Assembly: GCA_019721035.1 (NCBI GenBank) | Contig: JAHEAA010000002.1 | Location: forward strand, 76,020 to 140,019 | Direction of reading: 5' to 3' | Source of the DNA: Candidatus Sysuiplasma acidicola | GTDB lineage: Archaea; Thermoplasmatota; Thermoplasmata; Sysuiplasmatales; Sysuiplasmataceae | DNA length: 64,000 nucleotides | Part shown: positions 21,790-61,375 of the stretch, one piece after another | Numbering within the stretch: the first letter of the stretch is position 1 | How the letters are laid out: the number at the start of each line of letters is the position of its first letter | The notes under the pieces: model-generated | What the model was told of the DNA's origin: nothing | What the model saw: the letters and a program-made list of their open reading frames with translations, nothing else | The model's database searches: none | Program-made: the position numbers and the translations under genes

Positions 21790-21874
21790 GCAGGGATAAC
21801 CAAGCTTGGCCAAAGGTGCCAGATTCAGGGTCTGGTTGCGCAGGCATTCGGGGGTTCAAATCCTCCTCCCTGCA
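21790..21874 (+). tRNA. tRNA-Leu (anticodon CAG), type II with long variable arm
   Basis: Hand-folded cloverleaf: acceptor GCAGGGA/TCCCTGC, 3-bp D stem ACC/GGT, anticodon stem CCAGA/TCTGG with loop TTCAGGG, long variable arm, T arm GGGGG-TTCAAAT-CCTCC, discriminator A. CCA is not encoded. Confidence 0.8.
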
Positions 21875-22702: not shown

Positions 22703-22801
22703 GCGGTCACTCTTACACTTTTCCAACTTGAGCAGATATGCTAATAACCGAAATGAAATTTTGATTTGTTAAAAGATGCGAAGATCGGCCGCAAGTTGTA
22801 G

Positions 22802-22886
22802 TGCGGAGGGCCGGATTTGAACCGGCGAACCCCTGCGAGACAAGACCCTCAATCTTGCGCCGTTGACCATGCTTGGCTACCTCCGC
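22802..22886 (-). tRNA. tRNA-Leu (anticodon GAG), type II
   Basis: Reverse strand: acceptor GCGGAGG/CCTCCGC, D stem GCC/GGC, anticodon stem CAAGA/TCTTG with loop TTGAGGG, long variable arm, T arm GCCGG-TTCAAAT-CCGGC, discriminator A. Confidence 0.8.
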
Positions 22887-25352: not shown

Positions 25353-25650
25353 CCAGGAGAAGAAGGGCGGCCGACGGTAGCCATCTCAGGATGGCAGCTG
25401 AGGAAAGTCCCCTCTCCAGAGAAAGGTGGCCTGTTTAAACGCAGGGGGGCGAGAGCCCCGGCAAGGGCGCAGAAACGACACAGCCAGGATGCAGAATGAT
25501 TCGCCCGGCGATGACGTTGTCCTGGATTTGATGAAACGGCGACACCCCATCGGAGCAAGTCCAAATGGCCGGCATTTCTCAAATCCGGCAGGTAGGACGC
25601 ATTAGTCGAATGCTGCCTGAAACAGAAAGGGGCTTACTACCTTCACCTGG
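25353..25650 (+). ncRNA. rnpB: Candidate RNase P RNA
   Basis: Universal P4 5' motif GAGGAAAGUCC at 25400..25410 and the P4 3' motif ACAGAAAGGGGCUUA at 25622..25636. The two strands are complementary, including the conserved U-G wobble (AAGUCCC / GGGGCUU). P2 is GGUAG (25376..25380) / CUACC (25637..25641). P3 is a hairpin CCAUC-UCAG-GAUGG immediately 5' of the P4 motif. There is candidate P1 pairing between 25353..25361 and 25642..25650. The exact ends are uncertain. Confidence 0.55.
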
Positions 25651-55699: not shown

Positions 55700-55999
55700 A
55701 TGGACAACAATCCTCGACCGGCTGGCACCGACAACACGGAACACGGTGTCGGAAAGATTGATTTAGTCAGAACATCTTCGAAGCCCCGGAAAGTGTTTGA
55801 ATTGGCGGAACGCGTAGCTCCTCACCGGCACTGCAGACAGTGTGGCAAGCCTGTGGCACTTGAAGCCACGTTCTGCTCTGACGAATGCAACAACAGTTTC
55901 AAAAACGGACTCAGAAGAAAGAAGAGACAACTCTACCTCTATTACATCATGGTTATTGCACTGCTGTTCCTGGCGCTGGCCTACGTTGGTAAGTTATGA
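55700..55999 (+). CDS. Small zinc-ribbon protein with C-terminal TM helix
   Basis: CRQCGKPV...FCSDEC (C-x2-C-x13-C-x3-C) followed by the hydrophobic LYLYYIMVIALLFLALAYV. The true start may be internal. Confidence 0.45.
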   Translation: MDNNPRPAGTDNTEHGVGKIDLVRTSSKPRKVFELAERVAPHRHCRQCGKPVALEATFCSDECNNSFKNGLRRKKRQLYLYYIMVIALLFLALAYVGKL

Positions 56000-56982
56000 C
56001 GCGAAGAGAAGTGTGCCTCGGCGGCACGTTCAATGCATTGCATGCTGGACACAGGCTGCTGCTTCAGTCGGCGTTTCATAATGCAGATGCGGTGTACATC
56101 GGCCTTACATCAGATGAAATGGCACAATCGAAACGGACTGCAGTCAGATCCTTCGCCCTCAGGCGGAGGTCGCTGGTCTCATTTTGCACCGGGTTCCAGA
56201 AGCCGTTTTTCATAACCATGCTGCATGACCCGTATGGCCCGGCGGTAAGCATGGCATCTCTGAGTGCAATAGCCGTGACTCCGGACACTGTTTTTCGCGT
56301 TCCTGTGATCAACAGGATGAGGTGCACCAGGGGCATGAAGCCTCTGGAACGCATCATTGTGCCCCTGGTCCGATGTGCTGATGGAATTAAGCTCAGCTCC
56401 TCCAGGATTGTCGCGGGAGAATGCGACAGAGATGGAAATGTGCTCCGGCGCATTACAATAGGCATCGGTTCGGCTAATCCGTCGAAAATCAAGGGAGTGG
56501 AAATGGCTTTCCATCGGTATGCGCATGTTTTCCGTAATCCGATGTTCAAAGAACAGGATGTGAAGTCGTCGGTTTCCGATCAGCCGTCGGGTGATGATAC
56601 TGTCAGAGGTGCCATGAATCGCGCGCGCCTGGCTTTGATTGGAAACGACATCGGTATCGGCATCGAAGCAGGTTTGTTCAGAAACAGGGTACTCCACAGA
56701 ACCTTCGATGTCCAGTATTGTGTCATAGTGGACAGGGCAGGGTACGTTTCGTCGGGCCACGGAATGGGTTTTTCCTATCCGCCGTCGGTGCTCAAGGATA
56801 TTTCCGAGGGAAAGACCGCTGGGCACTCGATGTCATCGATCAGCGGCATTAAAGACATAGGAAGGAAGGAGGGAGCCGTAGGTTATCTTACCAGGGGTGC
56901 GATTGGTCGGGCAGAATTGACAGAACAGGCTGTTATCGCTGCACTGATTCCGCGCATCAACAGAACGCTGTACACCGCGTAA
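55996..56982 (+). CDS. coaD: Fusion protein: archaeal phosphopantetheine adenylyltransferase (PPAT, CoaD) N-domain plus DUF84/YjjX-type inosine/xanthosine triphosphatase C-domain
   Basis: N-domain: GGTFNALHAGH, IGLTSDEMA, LHDPYGPA and KPLERIIV match archaeal PPAT block for block. C-domain: IKDIGRKEGAVGYLTRGAIGRAELTEQAVIAAL matches E. coli YjjX [33 protein letters not shown]. Confidence 0.8.
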   Translation: MTRREVCLGGTFNALHAGHRLLLQSAFHNADAVYIGLTSDEMAQSKRTAVRSFALRRRSLVSFCTGFQKPFFITMLHDPYGPAVSMASLSAIAVTPDTVFRVPVINRMRCTRGMKPLERIIVPLVRCADGIKLSSSRIVAGECDRDGNVLRRITIGIGSANPSKIKGVEMAFHRYAHVFRNPMFKEQDVKSSVSDQPSGDDTVRGAMNRARLALIGNDIGIGIEAGLFRNRVLHRTFDVQYCVIVDRAGYVSSGHGMGFSYPPSVLKDISEGKTAGHSMSSISGIKDIGRKEGAVGYLTRGAIGRAELTEQAVIAALIPRINRTLYTA

Positions 56983-56993
56983 CTTACAAGGGG

Positions 56994-57094
56994 GCGCTGA
57001 GGGGGAGATTTGAACTCCCGAGTCGCAGAGCGACACCGGCTTTCCTGAGAGATTCTCAAGGCCGGCGCCTTGAACCGGGCTTAGCTACCTCAGC
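56994..57094 (-). tRNA. tRNA-Ser (anticodon UGA) containing a 13-nt intron at the canonical 37/38 position
   Basis: Reverse strand: acceptor GCTGAGG/CCTCAGC, discriminator G, D stem GCT/GGC, anticodon stem CCGGC/GCCGG, loop CUUGAG|intron|A with a bulge-helix-bulge-like TGAGA/TCTCA helix. Long variable arm GTCGC-TCT-GCGAC. T arm GGGAG-TTCAAAT-CTCCC. The 5' end overlaps the pheT stop codon. Confidence 0.7.
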
Positions 57095-58713
57095 AGCTGG
57101 ATTCGCGTCACATCGAGTTCCAATCCGACGACCGGATTAAACAGGTTGAAGTTGGTAATGACTTCCGGGTGTATTTCTCCCACATACCCTATCGCTTCAA
57201 CTCCATCACTTATGCGCATTTGCCTGCCTTCGATGAATCTCGGATCTGTCGATTCGGAGTATGTGAGGTTCAGCCTCAAATCTCTTCCTATCGCGTCAAT
57301 CAGTGATTTCGATTCTGAAAACGTGGCGCGCGGATGCGTATTGAGCGATGCGAGGAAGAGCCTGCGTTCAGGTGTCTGAACATGGCCTATCTCGAAAACC
57401 CTCTGCGGAAGTTCATTGTGCTTGTTCGCTTCGAGCAGCCTGAACAGGCCAGGAAGCAGCGATGTTCTCATAATCTCTGTATCCTCGGTAACGGGATTGA
57501 GTACTCTCACCACACCGGTGGGCTCAGTCCGCATCATCTTGAAGTTGGAGCTGACCGAAGCGAGCAGGAGCGTGATGCAGTGGATATATCCGTAGCCGGA
57601 CATGAGTTCCGATAGCACGTCTGAAAGTTTCGTCGAGGGAAGCAATTCGCCGTTTGTCTGATGCGCCGGCATGGACTTGCCGAACGATTCGAAACCATGC
57701 GCTATTGCAATATCCTCCGCAAGGTCCACCTCATGAAGCACGTCCATTCGATACGGCGGAACGCCTGCGGTGATGAAATCTCCATCTGGCTCGGCCGAGT
57801 GACCCATCCGCCTCAGGTGTTCTGCGTTCTCGTCGTCGGTGAGCTTGATGCCGGTGACTGCATTAATCCGCCGGGAAGTTGTCTGCATACGCCTGAAGCT
57901 CATGTCGGGAGATGTTGAGGAGTCATCGCCACGCAGGATCGACACGGACTCGATGGAAGCACCTCTGTCCGCAAGGTTTGAGCACAATATATTGAGCACA
58001 CCCGCGCATGCAGTCCTGCTGGTGCCAGTCACATCGATAAACATGTCCCTGGTATTTTCGTCCAGCACCGTTACAGTTCCGTTTATTATCGGCGGCATCG
58101 AGAGGACCGCTCCATTTGCGTCCGCAAGCACGGGATAAGGCCCCTGTCCCACGATCCGGCCATATTCCCTGCCCTTCTCATGCTTCAGCACAATATCTCC
58201 TAGCGAAAGTTCTTCATCCATGCCGAGCGGTGTGAAGCGAACTTCATCAGCAGCCATTGCCGCATACGTAAACGGAGGTTTCACTGTCCGCACGTTGTGG
58301 AGACCGATCGATACCTTTCTTCTGCGCCTGCCCACGGTGAGATGCAATTTCTCCTGAAGTTCGATGAGCGATCTGAGGGCACCGTTAGAAAGGTCGACAT
58401 GGCGTGCAACCGCACAGACAATAACCGGCCTTACTGCTTCAACAGACCTGTCAACGGTGAGATTGATTGCGCCGGTCTTCACATCATATTGTCTGACTTT
58501 CCGGTTCCCGTGGAGAAAGGAGAGCGTCCGGGCAATGCCCTCAACGGAGTAGTGGTCAGGCCTGTTCGGGAAGAACTCAAACCGCATACAGTCGGCCTCC
58601 ATGCCCTCAAAGCTGGCTCCTGTCATGGGAATAACCGATGCAAACCAGTCTGAGTCCCTGTTAATACCGGAAAGTCTCACGAGCTCATCGAGCCTTATGT
58701 CGATTACGGGCAT
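57085..58713 (-). CDS. pheT: Phenylalanyl-tRNA synthetase beta subunit (archaeal/eukaryotic type)
   Basis: MPVIDIRLDEL N-terminus, B3/4 and B5 domains; about 542 aa, typical of archaeal PheT. Confidence 0.9.
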   Translation of the reverse strand: MPVIDIRLDELVRLSGINRDSDWFASVIPMTGASFEGMEADCMRFEFFPNRPDHYSVEGIARTLSFLHGNRKVRQYDVKTGAINLTVDRSVEAVRPVIVCAVARHVDLSNGALRSLIELQEKLHLTVGRRRRKVSIGLHNVRTVKPPFTYAAMAADEVRFTPLGMDEELSLGDIVLKHEKGREYGRIVGQGPYPVLADANGAVLSMPPIINGTVTVLDENTRDMFIDVTGTSRTACAGVLNILCSNLADRGASIESVSILRGDDSSTSPDMSFRRMQTTSRRINAVTGIKLTDDENAEHLRRMGHSAEPDGDFITAGVPPYRMDVLHEVDLAEDIAIAHGFESFGKSMPAHQTNGELLPSTKLSDVLSELMSGYGYIHCITLLLASVSSNFKMMRTEPTGVVRVLNPVTEDTEIMRTSLLPGLFRLLEANKHNELPQRVFEIGHVQTPERRLFLASLNTHPRATFSESKSLIDAIGRDLRLNLTYSESTDPRFIEGRQMRISDGVEAIGYVGEIHPEVITNFNLFNPVVGLELDVTRIQLLR

Positions 58714-58850
58714 TCTCTCACCCATCAACTGTTGGTTATATTTTAATTTATGAGGTTGTCACCCCCCACAGACCCCCCTGAGAGCACATGCGGCACACCG
58801 CCAGTTTAAAATGCAATGCAATTATAGCGAACACCATTGAGGGAAATGAC

Positions 58851-59688: not shown

Positions 59689-60708
59689 TTACACTATCAG
59701 CGAAAGGTCACCAAACTCATGCCAGCTGTAACCTATCTCCTTTGCGACTGAGTAGGCTGACAGGAGTGTTGAATCGTCGACAAGGGCGGAAACCATATCC
59801 ACATGGGAACCGTCCGGTTCATGCAGACCGGTTATGAGGCCGTCTATCATGCCGAATCTGAAACCCGGCGTGATGTAGATGTCGGTCCTTCCATGAATGG
59901 GCTTTCTGCCTGAGATTGCACATGATTCCAGCGCTCTCGCAACAGTGGTACCCACTGCCAGAACGCGACCGCCCTCTTCGTGCGTTTTCTGAATTTGTTC
60001 AAGCGTCCTCCTGCTAACTGCGTATTCCTCATCGAGCAGCCTGGTCGCGTTTTCGAATTCTGATGACTCAAGAGAAGAAAGATTGCAATGCAGAGTAATT
60101 GTGGCAAAACGCACCCCATTCTTCTCCAGCGACTGCATCACCCTTTGGGTAAATGGCCGCGACGCAGAAGGAAATTCGACGGAGCCAGGCAGCGACGAGA
60201 AAACAGTATCGTATGTTTCCGGAGGTAGATCGAAAGGTATGTGACCGTATCTTATATACTGCCCGAATTTGCTCATCACAGACGTGAATTCGAAGTAATC
60301 CGCAGGCTCAACCCACCAGTACCTGTGGAAGAGACTGTGCCTTTTCACCAGTTTCACTCCCGTAGATTCAGGCACTGTCAGTGCTATTTCTCTTTCCGAC
60401 AGTAATTCACCTATGTTCCGCGGACGCGGCTCGCACAGCATCATCCCGTGCACTGAACTCGTGCCGAAATTCAGTTTGCCTCTTCGGCCGCTCTCCGTGA
60501 AGAATACGTTGAGTGAAGACGGAATCATGAGTGAATCATTGAACACCAGAAGATCACCCGGACGAAGAAAGTCCCGCAGGCCGATGAAAGGTGATCCGCT
60601 GACCATCCCTCTGCTCCTGTCTATCGTGAGCAGTTTGACCTCGTCTTTCGCTGCGCCGTAGAATTCCGGCGGAAGGTGTGCGGTGTTGTAATCGAACATG
60701 TGTTTCAT
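59689..60708 (-). CDS. queA: S-adenosylmethionine:tRNA ribosyltransferase-isomerase (QueA) homolog
   Basis: Collinear blocks versus E. coli QueA: PGDLLVFNDSLMIPSSL / PGDLLVFNNTRVIPARL; ATITLHCNLSSLE / AFVTLHVGAGTFQP; RVLAVGTTVARALES / RVIAVGTTSVRSLES; IYITPGFRFGMIDGLITGLHEPDGSHVDMVSA / [32 protein letters not shown]. Confidence 0.8.
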   Translation of the reverse strand: MKHMFDYNTAHLPPEFYGAAKDEVKLLTIDRSRGMVSGSPFIGLRDFLRPGDLLVFNDSLMIPSSLNVFFTESGRRGKLNFGTSSVHGMMLCEPRPRNIGELLSEREIALTVPESTGVKLVKRHSLFHRYWWVEPADYFEFTSVMSKFGQYIRYGHIPFDLPPETYDTVFSSLPGSVEFPSASRPFTQRVMQSLEKNGVRFATITLHCNLSSLESSEFENATRLLDEEYAVSRRTLEQIQKTHEEGGRVLAVGTTVARALESCAISGRKPIHGRTDIYITPGFRFGMIDGLITGLHEPDGSHVDMVSALVDDSTLLSAYSVAKEIGYSWHEFGDLSLIV

Positions 60709-60718
60709 AGTCTCAGCC

Positions 60719-61375
60719 TCACCTCGCCGTGAGTTGCTCACAAATCAGTTTATAGACATCTGTAGCGGCTGTATCGGGGTGCTTTAGCTGACTGACGTCC
60801 GCATCCGGGATCGCAAGCCGATGCATTTCAGTGTCCATGTCACCTGGATCTATGTTCATCGCACGCACTCCCGCTTTGGCGAGCTCGACATCAAGCACAT
60901 TGATTGCCTGGTTGAAGGCTGCCTTCGAAGCGCCATATCCTGACCATCCCGCATATGGAGTGCGCGATGCGTCGGATGTAATGTGAACGATTATGCCTTT
61001 CGCATTCATCAACGGCAGGAGCTTCTGAACAACATTGAAATTTGCGAACACATTGGACTCAAACAACCTTCTCAGTTCCATAAGATTAATCTGATCGAAT
61101 GCAGGAAGTGGAAGTTGTCCTATGGTGCCGGCATTCAGCACCAGAGCGTCGATGTAGCCAGGCTTCGCCCTGATCACGCTCCTGAGATTCAGCACGTGAT
61201 TTTCCAGCCTGATATCACATGGAACAGTACTAGCATCCGCATTTTTGTCTTCTTTCAGGGATTCCAGCAGTTGTATCCTGCGCCCGCACCCTGTAACCGA
61301 CCAGCCCTCTGCCGAGAATTTGTTGAACAAGCTTCTGCCGAGTCCGGAAGTGCAGCCGGTAACAACTGCAGACAT
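60719..61375 (-). CDS. SDR family oxidoreductase
   Basis: MSAVVTGCTSGLGRSL (TGxxxGxG), LVLNAG, YGASKAA (YxxxK). It sits 10 bp upstream of queA on the same strand. Confidence 0.75.
   Translation of the reverse strand: MSAVVTGCTSGLGRSLFNKFSAEGWSVTGCGRRIQLLESLKEDKNADASTVPCDIRLENHVLNLRSVIRAKPGYIDALVLNAGTIGQLPLPAFDQINLMELRRLFESNVFANFNVVQKLLPLMNAKGIIVHITSDASRTPYAGWSGYGASKAAFNQAINVLDVELAKAGVRAMNIDPGDMDTEMHRLAIPDADVSQLKHPDTAATDVYKLICEQLTAR

Follow-up and report, generated by a model that had tools for sequence, protein, structure and literature searches.

One reading frame in the genome of Candidatus Sysuiplasma acidicola, lying within the 64-kb stretch of archaeal DNA analysed here (the window), pairs a phosphopantetheine adenylyltransferase (PPAT) with a nucleoside triphosphatase of the YjjX/DUF84 type, and so raises two questions: are these two whole enzymes made as one chain, and if so, why are they joined? 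PPAT catalyses step four in CoA synthesis, from ATP and 4′-phosphopantetheine to dephospho-CoA and PPi. This step is essential for CoA synthesis in the archaeon T. kodakarensis (TK2128; PMC6650551). A first-pass annotation had proposed a single 328-aa ORF here, and this is borne out: the ORF listing gives exactly one, with an ATG start, no internal stops and one uninterrupted frame. The domain scan suggested at the same time, for PF01467 and PF01931, matched both Pfam families within that ORF (Table 1), and tblastn found no further copy of either domain in the 64-kb window.

Table 1. Coordinates in the window of the fusion, its domains and motifs, and the gene upstream.
Feature	Position	Strand	Basis
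Whole fusion ORF, 328 aa, stop codon included	55996..56982	+	ORF list; NF002250 alignment
PPAT domain, archaeal/eukaryotic-type CoaD, residues 1–150	55996..56445	+	PF01467, NF001985, 3do8 match
HxGH nucleotidyltransferase motif, H16-A-G-H19, inside GGTFNALHAGH	56041..56052	+	Alignment
ISSTxIR-like motif, L133-S-S-S-R-I138	56392..56409	+	Aligns to ISSTRI of 3do8
Junction, residues 139–157 (VAGECDRDGNVLRRITIGI): PPAT C-terminal tail (GE.D..G) and first DUF84 strand	56410..56466	+	pLDDT, consensus
DUF84/YjjX-type NTPase domain, residues ~153–328	56452..56979	+	PF01931, TIGR00258, 1u5w fold
G-S-A-N-P-S-K motif, residues 158–164, aligning to YjjX TTNPAK	56467..56487	+	Invariance alignment
I-E-A-G-L motif, residues 223–227, with invariant E224	56662..56676	+	Invariance alignment
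DUF2116 gene, zinc-ribbon ‘treble clef’ and C-terminal hydrophobic helix	55700..55999	+	PF09889, E 2e-14

The N-terminal domain is, by its domain matches and motifs, a complete archaeal-type PPAT. PF01467 (Pfam) matches residues 8–139 (E 5e-9, score 36.8 against a cut-off of 21), the NCBIfam PPAT model NF001985 gives 135.1 where 104 is required, and the fold of this half superimposes on the stand-alone A. fulgidus PPAT 3do8 with a TM of 0.79. Because residues 5–149 here align to residues 2–147 of 3do8 and thus cover nearly all of that 148-aa protein, the domain corresponds to the whole enzyme. G10, T11, F12, H16, G18 and H19, in and around the nucleotidyltransferase motif, are invariant among 29 fused homologues. 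The whole-enzyme alignment to 3do8 and the HxGH and ISSTxIR motifs liken this half to the stand-alone archaeal/eukaryotic-type PPATs of A. fulgidus, P. abyssi and T. kodakarensis; in contrast to those enzymes, the GE.D..G C-terminal tail of the window protein continues straight into a second domain.

That second domain is, judged by family, a complete YjjX/DUF84-type purine NTP phosphatase. PF01931 is matched along its full profile (positions 1–162 of 162) by residues 158–321 (E 3e-44), so that the earlier claim that both domains are complete holds for this half as for the first, and the score against the inosine/xanthosine triphosphatase equivalog TIGR00258 (NCBIfam) is 148.9, above the cut-off of 117.1. 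The domain aligns along nearly the entire length of E. coli YjjX and V. cholerae VC0702 (PDB 1u5w, 1u14, 1zno, 1zwy; HAMAP/TIGR00258), with which it shares both fold and family-invariant residues; against YjjX 1u5w, Foldseek gives a TM of 0.85 normalised to the target, an rmsd of 2.3 Å and ~32% identity. Those two relatives are stand-alone proteins of ~170 aa, and E. coli YjjX, which hydrolyses ITP and XTP, is to our knowledge the only relative of the domain that has been assayed.

Residues were compared across 115 DUF84 sequences (102 fused, 12 stand-alone or split, and YjjX). S/T159 and K164 are invariant throughout, as is E224 (115 of 115), and N161 is present in all the non-fused sequences and in 98 of the 102 fused ones, the other four having S. 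The window protein retains every residue of the set conserved in bacterial sequences, in archaeal stand-alone ones and in the fused ones (S/T159, N161, K164, Q196, P197, G205, A206, R209, E224, A225, G226, P262, G293 and R305), so that a degenerate C-terminal domain lacking the catalytic residues of DUF84, one of the outcomes that could have undone the first reading, is ruled out. That reading had called the partner an ITP/XTP ‘pyrophosphatase’; the family assignment stands, and the reaction label is insecure, NCBIfam naming the family triphosphatase or NTP phosphatase. The products listed for EC 3.6.1.73 are NDP and Pi. One paper places YjjX among the pyrophosphatases, and the naming of the reaction differs between sources. 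A single position of interest departs from YjjX: E38, described as part of its metal-binding site (PMC9237125), is K190 in the window protein, and at this position the fused family has E in 27 sequences, D in 19, K in 12 and S in 9, besides other residues, and VC0702 has P. Since the position varies both in VC0702 and across the fused family, we did not use it against YjjX/DUF84 membership; the residue seems not to define the family and, to judge from the alignment, may not be essential.

The two domains are produced as one chain. The junction consensus GEIDxxGxxLRPLxVxVGS is conserved among the 29 aligned fused homologues, and the codons of the junction here (…RRITIGIGS…) include no ATG, GTG or TTG, which rules out a separate start for the DUF84 domain. 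In the AlphaFold2 model (pLDDT 92.9, pTM 0.86), residues 141–160 reach a pLDDT of 94–96; the junction is thus predicted to be ordered, and the relative placement of the two domains is predicted with confidence. A frameshift or stop that would split the ORF in two is absent, and a protein 99% identical over 100% of its length is already public (P0001); a full-length protein of this identity occurs on 12 contigs, which come from several sources. As ~100 homologues, P0001 among them, cross the same junction uninterrupted, an artefact in which two genes were joined by a sequencing frameshift or misassembly, in whose favour stands only the truly split gene form of another phylum (below), is ruled out for practical purposes. 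We consider it likely, on this evidence, that the locus encodes a complete archaeal PPAT joined to a complete YjjX/DUF84 NTPase in a single polypeptide.

The fusion is not novel to this window: it belongs to a curated family and is standard across Thermoplasmata. The model NF002250 (PRK01170), ‘bifunctional pantetheine-phosphate adenylyltransferase/NTP phosphatase’, has the same domains, order and length, and aligns residues 6–327 to profile positions 3–321 of 322 (E 2e-83). The score of 280.5 bits falls under the cut-off of 489, which indicates that this lineage is more divergent than the set to which the model was tuned. Both Pfam domains are carried by ~100 clusters at 90% identity, and at 50% identity ~100 representatives show the same architecture along the whole profile. 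A search for related loci with a 12-sequence alignment as query confirmed 206 species genomes; the best 80 of these 206 match residues ~5–326, except for one (L074, residues 31–326), and all 80 are Thermoplasmata-type archaea, which answers for these best matches the question, raised in the first-pass annotation, of whether the fusion is restricted by lineage. Literature searches by DUF84, COG1986/COG1019, PF01931/PRK01170 and Thermoplasma PPAT found no paper on a PPAT–DUF84 fusion; an apparent ‘DUF84’ match in the NetSyn preprint is in fact DUF849.

Outside this group, the same two genes occur side by side. In Hydrothermarchaeota (Ca. Pyrohabitans and relatives), separate PPAT and DUF84 genes follow each other in the same order with a 10-nt overlap (ATGCGnGTAG), in four Hydrothermarchaeota-type species and three different neighbourhoods (loci L086, L089, L091 and L092). 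Their products (150–151 aa and 174 aa) are 47–48% and 45–48% identical to the two halves of the fusion, and differ from it in being two polypeptides and in having no DUF2116 gene upstream. The pair divides exactly at the fusion junction, where its sequences are colinear with the fusion; with the 10-nt overlap, this means that a one-nucleotide frame change interconverts the split and fused states. The separate, overlapping genes of Hydrothermarchaeota also imply that the association of PPAT with DUF84 predates the fusion or extends beyond it. To weigh one fusion against later fission, the DUF84 halves were placed in an approximate neighbour-joining tree without support values, in which split and stand-alone sequences lie between fused clades. 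For the other stand-alone DUF84 genes inspected (P0104, P0108) no PPAT neighbour was found, nor was a DUF84 neighbour found for the other stand-alone PPAT genes (P0118, P0238, P0112), so the association is confined to certain lineages. Candidates for fusions in the reverse order, DUF84–PPAT, which would have pointed to independent fusions, proved to be DUF84–DUF84 tandems (P0213, P0237) and a PPAT–PPAT tandem (P0248).

The gene directly upstream of the fusion encodes a DUF2116 protein, whose start is uncertain (the ATG at 55700 or a TTG near 55802). Its stop codon overlaps the ATG of the fusion (ATGA), and the two genes are therefore probably co-transcribed. Among 74 related loci, 54–55 have DUF2116 directly upstream on the same strand. 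DUF2116 also lies upstream of the stand-alone PPAT in L094.

Why, then, should these enzymes be joined? We infer that both domains are catalytically active. A functional link between PPAT and DUF84 is plausible, and the case for it is strengthened by the second phylum, where the two genes lie side by side and overlap. Fusion or overlap would hold the NTPase at a 1:1 stoichiometry with PPAT, probably in one oligomeric particle. The reason we prefer is that the NTPase would limit how far purine NTPs that are deaminated or non-cognate (ITP, XTP, possibly GTP) enter adenylyl transfer by PPAT, where they would otherwise yield inosine or xanthosine analogues of dephospho-CoA. Taken alone, this substrate-guarding rationale for the fusion is tentative and rather unlikely. 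The first-pass annotation had suggested sanitising of the nucleotide pool at the adenylyl-transfer step or action on a CoA-related dinucleotide, both of them speculative here. A benefit of ‘local sanitising’ is doubtful, as a tethered enzyme does not make an NTP that diffuses freely any scarcer in its surroundings.

A real contender, if one we would stop short of calling probable, is that the fusion is a matter of expression convenience: two unrelated housekeeping genes were merged by a one-nucleotide frame change, with no biochemical coupling, and the merged gene has been inherited since because splitting it brings no benefit. That a single frame shift at the 10-nt overlap separates the split from the fused state fits this well, as does the unlinked position of most stand-alone DUF84 and PPAT genes looked at elsewhere; E. 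coli yjjX, too, is not known to adjoin coaD. Yet the fusion persists in ~100 clusters (50% identity) and throughout an archaeal class, with a junction that is conserved and modelled as ordered (pTM 0.86), and the second phylum retains the gene pair in three distinct neighbourhoods.

An unlikely reading is that archaeal YjjX/DUF84 is a dedicated partner of PPAT in the CoA pathway and not a general house-cleaner. Such a partner might proofread adenylyl transfer, either by hydrolysing ITP, XTP or GTP before PPAT can use them or by breaking down dephospho-CoA analogues that carry inosine or guanosine, with recycling of phosphopantetheine, or it might sense purine nucleotides or CoA and so regulate PPAT. 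The persistence of the link as fusion or overlapping genes in two phyla is consistent with this, as are the variation in the fused family at the position of the YjjX metal ligand and the physiological role of YjjX itself, which has been described as inadequately characterised (PMC9237125). There is also a precedent, in that the fusion of PPAT to an uncharacterised arCOG04076 domain led to the enzyme that acts next in the pathway (PMC6650551). However, every residue shared with YjjX is conserved, in keeping with unchanged chemistry on a mononucleotide, and the domain lies above the TIGR00258 equivalog cut-off.

It is very improbable that DUF84 replaces dephospho-CoA kinase (DPCK), by analogy with the eukaryotic CoA synthase (PPAT–DPCK). 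PPAT–DPCK fusions do exist in eukaryotes, and in marine group II/III archaea PPAT is fused to arCOG04076 (DUF359), a GTP-dependent DPCK (Shimosaka et al., 2019; PMC6650551); that protein, from the same phylum Thermoplasmatota, likewise has PPAT at its N-terminus and a second small nucleotide-handling domain, and an NTPase that cleaves off the gamma-phosphate might in principle be carrying out a kinase reaction in uncoupled form. There, however, the partner is unrelated to DUF84 and catalyses the next pathway step, whereas Pfam and NCBIfam scans of residues 150–328 here found no DPCK domain (CoaE P-loop or DUF359/arCOG04076), only PF01931/TIGR00258, which sets the window protein apart from the eukaryotic COASY/PPAT–DPCK type, whose second domain is a DPCK. 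The DUF84 fold is moreover of the Maf/Ham1 ITPase type and not a kinase fold. On grounds of the literature, too, replacement is disfavoured: arCOG04076 is reportedly present in almost all archaea apart from some DPANN, with a wider spread than the enzymes missing in Thermoplasmatales (PMC6650551).

The picture of CoA metabolism stays unchanged unless a real coupling of PPAT and DUF84 is shown by experiment. What is new here is the Hydrothermarchaeota pair split at the fusion junction and the recurrence of DUF2116 upstream; this uncharacterised zinc-ribbon gene may be a third component of a PPAT–DUF84 unit. For genome annotation, the 99%-identical twin and most relatives carry only the public name ‘inosine/xanthosine triphosphatase’, which conceals the essential PPAT step in Thermoplasmata genomes and can lead metabolic reconstructions to list it, in error, as missing. 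For the family, fusion in one phylum and overlap in another offer a route into the poorly defined role of YjjX. If DUF84 were indeed a dedicated partner of PPAT, the fused and overlapping forms would reveal the role of the poorly understood YjjX/DUF84 family, in parallel with the PPAT–arCOG04076 fusion that revealed the archaeal dephospho-CoA kinase.

The first-pass annotation had read a single 328-aa ORF as a complete phosphopantetheine adenylyltransferase (PPAT) joined to a complete DUF84 (YjjX-type NTPase) domain, and this assignment is right by ORF calling, Pfam and NCBIfam matches and alignment to solved structures (Table). The PPAT half scores 135.1 bits against the archaeal PPAT model NF001985 (curated cut-off 104), and the DUF84 half 148.9 bits against TIGR00258, the inosine/xanthosine triphosphatase equivalog (cut-off 117.1). 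Residues 5-149 align to 2-147 of the stand-alone Archaeoglobus fulgidus PPAT 3do8 (148 residues), taking in GGTFxxxHxGH, ISSTRI and the C-terminal GE.D..G tail, so the N-domain is an entire enzyme and the DUF84 domain starts at the point that corresponds to the end of a stand-alone PPAT. The C-domain matches E. coli YjjX and V. cholerae VC0702 across nearly their full length. Since no junction codon could serve as a start, the two domains can only be made as one chain. No second PPAT or DUF84 domain was found elsewhere within the 64-kb window.

Table. Features of the window and split gene pairs at related loci (L-numbers).
Feature	Coordinates	Strand	Remarks
Fusion ORF	55996..56982	+	ATG start, 328 codons, internal stops absent
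PF01467 (cytidylyltransferase-like)	residues 8-139 of fusion		Pfam, E 5e-9
PF01931 (NTPase_I-T, DUF84)	residues 158-321 of fusion		Pfam, E 3e-44, all 162 profile positions covered
DUF2116 gene	55700..55999	+	PF09889, E 2e-14; directly upstream of fusion
Class-II tRNA with intron	56995..57094	-	RF00005, 44.4 bits (Rfam), 16-nt insertion in anticodon loop
Split PPAT (150-151 aa) + DUF84 (174 aa) pairs	L086:3001-3971, L089:3001-3968, L091:3001-3968, L092:3001-3971		Ca. Pyrohabitans and relatives
Archaeal RNase P RNA	25355..25648	+	RF00373, 192 bits, full length
tRNA-Leu(GAG)	22801..22886	-	ARAGORN; no Rfam report at gathering threshold
Neighbouring tRNA-Leu	21790..21874		reported by Rfam
350-aa QueA-like ORF	59689..60741	-	full-length PF02547 (Queuosine_synth), E 1.5e-64

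A frameshift or misassembly was rejected as the source of the fusion: a 99% identical 328-aa protein is recorded on 12 contigs from several sources, both Pfam domains occur at the same length in ~100 clusters (90% identity), and an alignment of 29 homologues runs unbroken through the junction (consensus ISSTRIxxGEIDxxGxxLRPLxVxVGSxNxxK), with no hidden stop dividing two genes. When 1.84 billion representatives were searched with a profile, 1340 proteins matched at E <= 1e-30; of the top 150 representatives (clustered at 50% identity), ~100 span the entire profile without a break. The fusion is lineage-restricted, but the lineage is a whole class: among 206 confirmed relatives (one genome per species), the best 80 are all Thermoplasmata-type archaea, comprising Methanomassiliicoccales, Methanomethylophilaceae, Ca. 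Sysuiplasma, DHVE2 and many Thermoplasmata/Thermoplasmatota MAGs, and match near full length (approximately residues 5-326; one exception, L074, 31-326). The closest among the matches listed are a Thermoplasmata MAG (73% identity) and Ca. Sysuiplasma superficiale (50%). The PPAT-DUF84 fusion is thus the normal state within its class. Other homologues have different arrangements, namely tandem DUF84-DUF84 proteins (P0213 and P0237; 376 and 347 aa), a tandem PPAT-PPAT protein (P0248, 327 aa) and two resembling chimeras with pentapeptide-repeat or ABC-transporter fragments (P0215, P0216), where misassembly is possible.

In the PPAT half, G10, T11, F12, H16, G18, H19, N106, R109 and R137 are (near-)invariant among fused proteins, and the window protein has all of them. 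For the DUF84 half we compared 102 fused and 12 stand-alone or split archaeal sequences with YjjX: S/T159, N161, K164, Q196, P197, G205, A206, R209, E224, A225, G226, P262, G293 and R305 are essentially invariant across all three groups, and the window protein keeps every one of them, so a degenerate C-domain was rejected. The sole discrepancy is K190, which aligns to E38 of YjjX, a residue assigned to the metal-binding site (PMC9237125); because residues at this position differ all across the fused family and VC0702 has a proline there, we do not hold it against DUF84 membership. An AlphaFold2 model (29-sequence alignment; mean pLDDT 92.9, pTM 0.86, junction pLDDT 94-96) indicates two domains in a confidently predicted mutual arrangement, not beads on a string. 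By Foldseek against the PDB, the C-half matches YjjX and VC0702 (target-normalised TM 0.79-0.86) and the N-half 3do8 (TM 0.79), with no solved two-domain relative.

When only the PPAT half was used as query, eight stand-alone PPATs were found, four of which (P0111, P0115, P0116 and P0113, the last recorded as Ca. Pyrohabitans sp., phylum Hydrothermarchaeota) are followed by a stand-alone DUF84 gene at a 10-nt overlap, ATGCGnGTAG, in three different neighbourhoods. These PPATs end in …RRGEIDREGVLLCA*; the DUF84 genes begin MRVAVGSTNPVK, which lies within ATGCGCGTAG. The split products match window-protein residues 4-150 (47-48% identity) and 153/155-326 (45-48%) in colinear order, and thus the pair is divided exactly at the fusion junction; split and fused states are interconvertible by a single-nucleotide frame change. 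As the pair keeps its gene order and translational coupling in Hydrothermarchaeota, a second archaeal phylum, the association is more than one fused-gene accident. It is not universal: three other stand-alone PPAT genes have no adjacent DUF84, two other stand-alone DUF84 genes have no adjacent PPAT, and their neighbours are unrelated. A rough neighbour-joining tree did not separate an ancestral split form from secondary fission.

The fusion is probably co-transcribed with the DUF2116 gene, whose stop overlaps the fusion start (ATGA), whose own start could be either ATG at 55700 or TTG near 55802, and whose product is a zinc-ribbon protein with a C-terminal hydrophobic helix; we found no literature on DUF2116 function. 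DUF2116 holds this position in 54 of the 74 Thermoplasmata loci with enough upstream sequence (~55 with L027, by eye), and also precedes a stand-alone PPAT, at a 4-nt overlap, on an unrelated metagenomic contig (L094:2717-3004). Approximately 19 loci, mostly of a high-GC clade of Thermoplasmata MAGs (many soil, 'EA_' isolates), instead carry a 344-347-aa gene that by sequence looks homoserine-dehydrogenase-like; in the high-GC loci L019, L022, L026, L044, L046, L051, L055, L058, L059, L061, L063, L072, L075, L077 and L079 it ends ~40 nt ahead of the fusion start. Deoxyhypusine synthase lies upstream in divergent orientation and PheRS beta downstream in convergent orientation, the latter likewise in 33 of 80 related loci; no further gene of CoA or nucleotide metabolism is conserved next to the fusion. 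The intron-bearing tRNA begins 13 nt past the fusion stop codon on the opposite strand, its first 10 nt overlapping the 3' end of the pheT ORF (57085..58728, -); ARAGORN missed it. Its fold (z = -4.6) is a cloverleaf whose variable arm is long, and we read its anticodon as UGA (Ser). QueA is a bacterial queuosine enzyme; the QueA-like ORF lies in an archaeal genome and has homologues in the two closest related loci. The RNase P RNA confirms the archaeal origin of the window.

The fusion is an already known, catalogued and class-wide architecture, and its novelty is accordingly low. The NCBIfam family NF002250 (PRK01170), 'bifunctional pantetheine-phosphate adenylyltransferase/NTP phosphatase', has the same architecture and aligns over profile positions 3-321 of 322 (E 2e-83); because the score, 280.5 bits, falls under the model cut-off of 489, the 99% twin and most relatives are publicly named "inosine/xanthosine triphosphatase" only. 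By curated score, motifs and fold the halves belong to the archaeal PPAT and YjjX/TIGR00258 families. The protein is not a PPAT-dephospho-CoA kinase fusion like those of eukaryotes or marine group II/III archaea. No discussion of the fusion was found in the literature searched. Products of EC 3.6.1.73 are NDP and Pi. The earlier label 'pyrophosphatase' for the DUF84 half is not secure: one paper places YjjX with the pyrophosphatases, but NCBIfam has triphosphatase or NTP phosphatase.

YjjX hydrolyses ITP and XTP and is, to our knowledge, the only assayed relative of the C-domain. PPAT converts ATP and 4'-phosphopantetheine to dephospho-CoA. T. kodakarensis cannot do without this step (PMC6650551). 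One polypeptide carries both catalytic domains, each complete and apparently intact, at an ordered junction. Both activities are probably retained, and the fusion would guarantee equal amounts of the two enzymes, probably within one oligomer. Our preferred rationale is that the NTPase would shield adenylyl transfer from purine NTPs that are deaminated or non-cognate and would otherwise yield base-modified dephospho-CoA; we hold it only tentatively, and rather doubt it, because a tethered hydrolase makes no local nucleotide-free zone. Its main rival, a neutral merger of overlapping PPAT and DUF84 genes, is likewise less likely than not. The marine group II/III case illustrates that PPAT fusions can indicate real pathway partners (PMC6650551). 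The DUF84 domain might instead have a dedicated role related to CoA, either proofreading a dinucleotide product or regulating PPAT, a possible but improbable reading. That the domain substitutes for dephospho-CoA kinase is unlikely, given that the arCOG04076 kinase is reported for nearly all archaea (PMC6650551) and that DUF84 has a Maf/Ham1 ITPase-type fold. The dedicated CoA-related role, if true, would be the interesting outcome.
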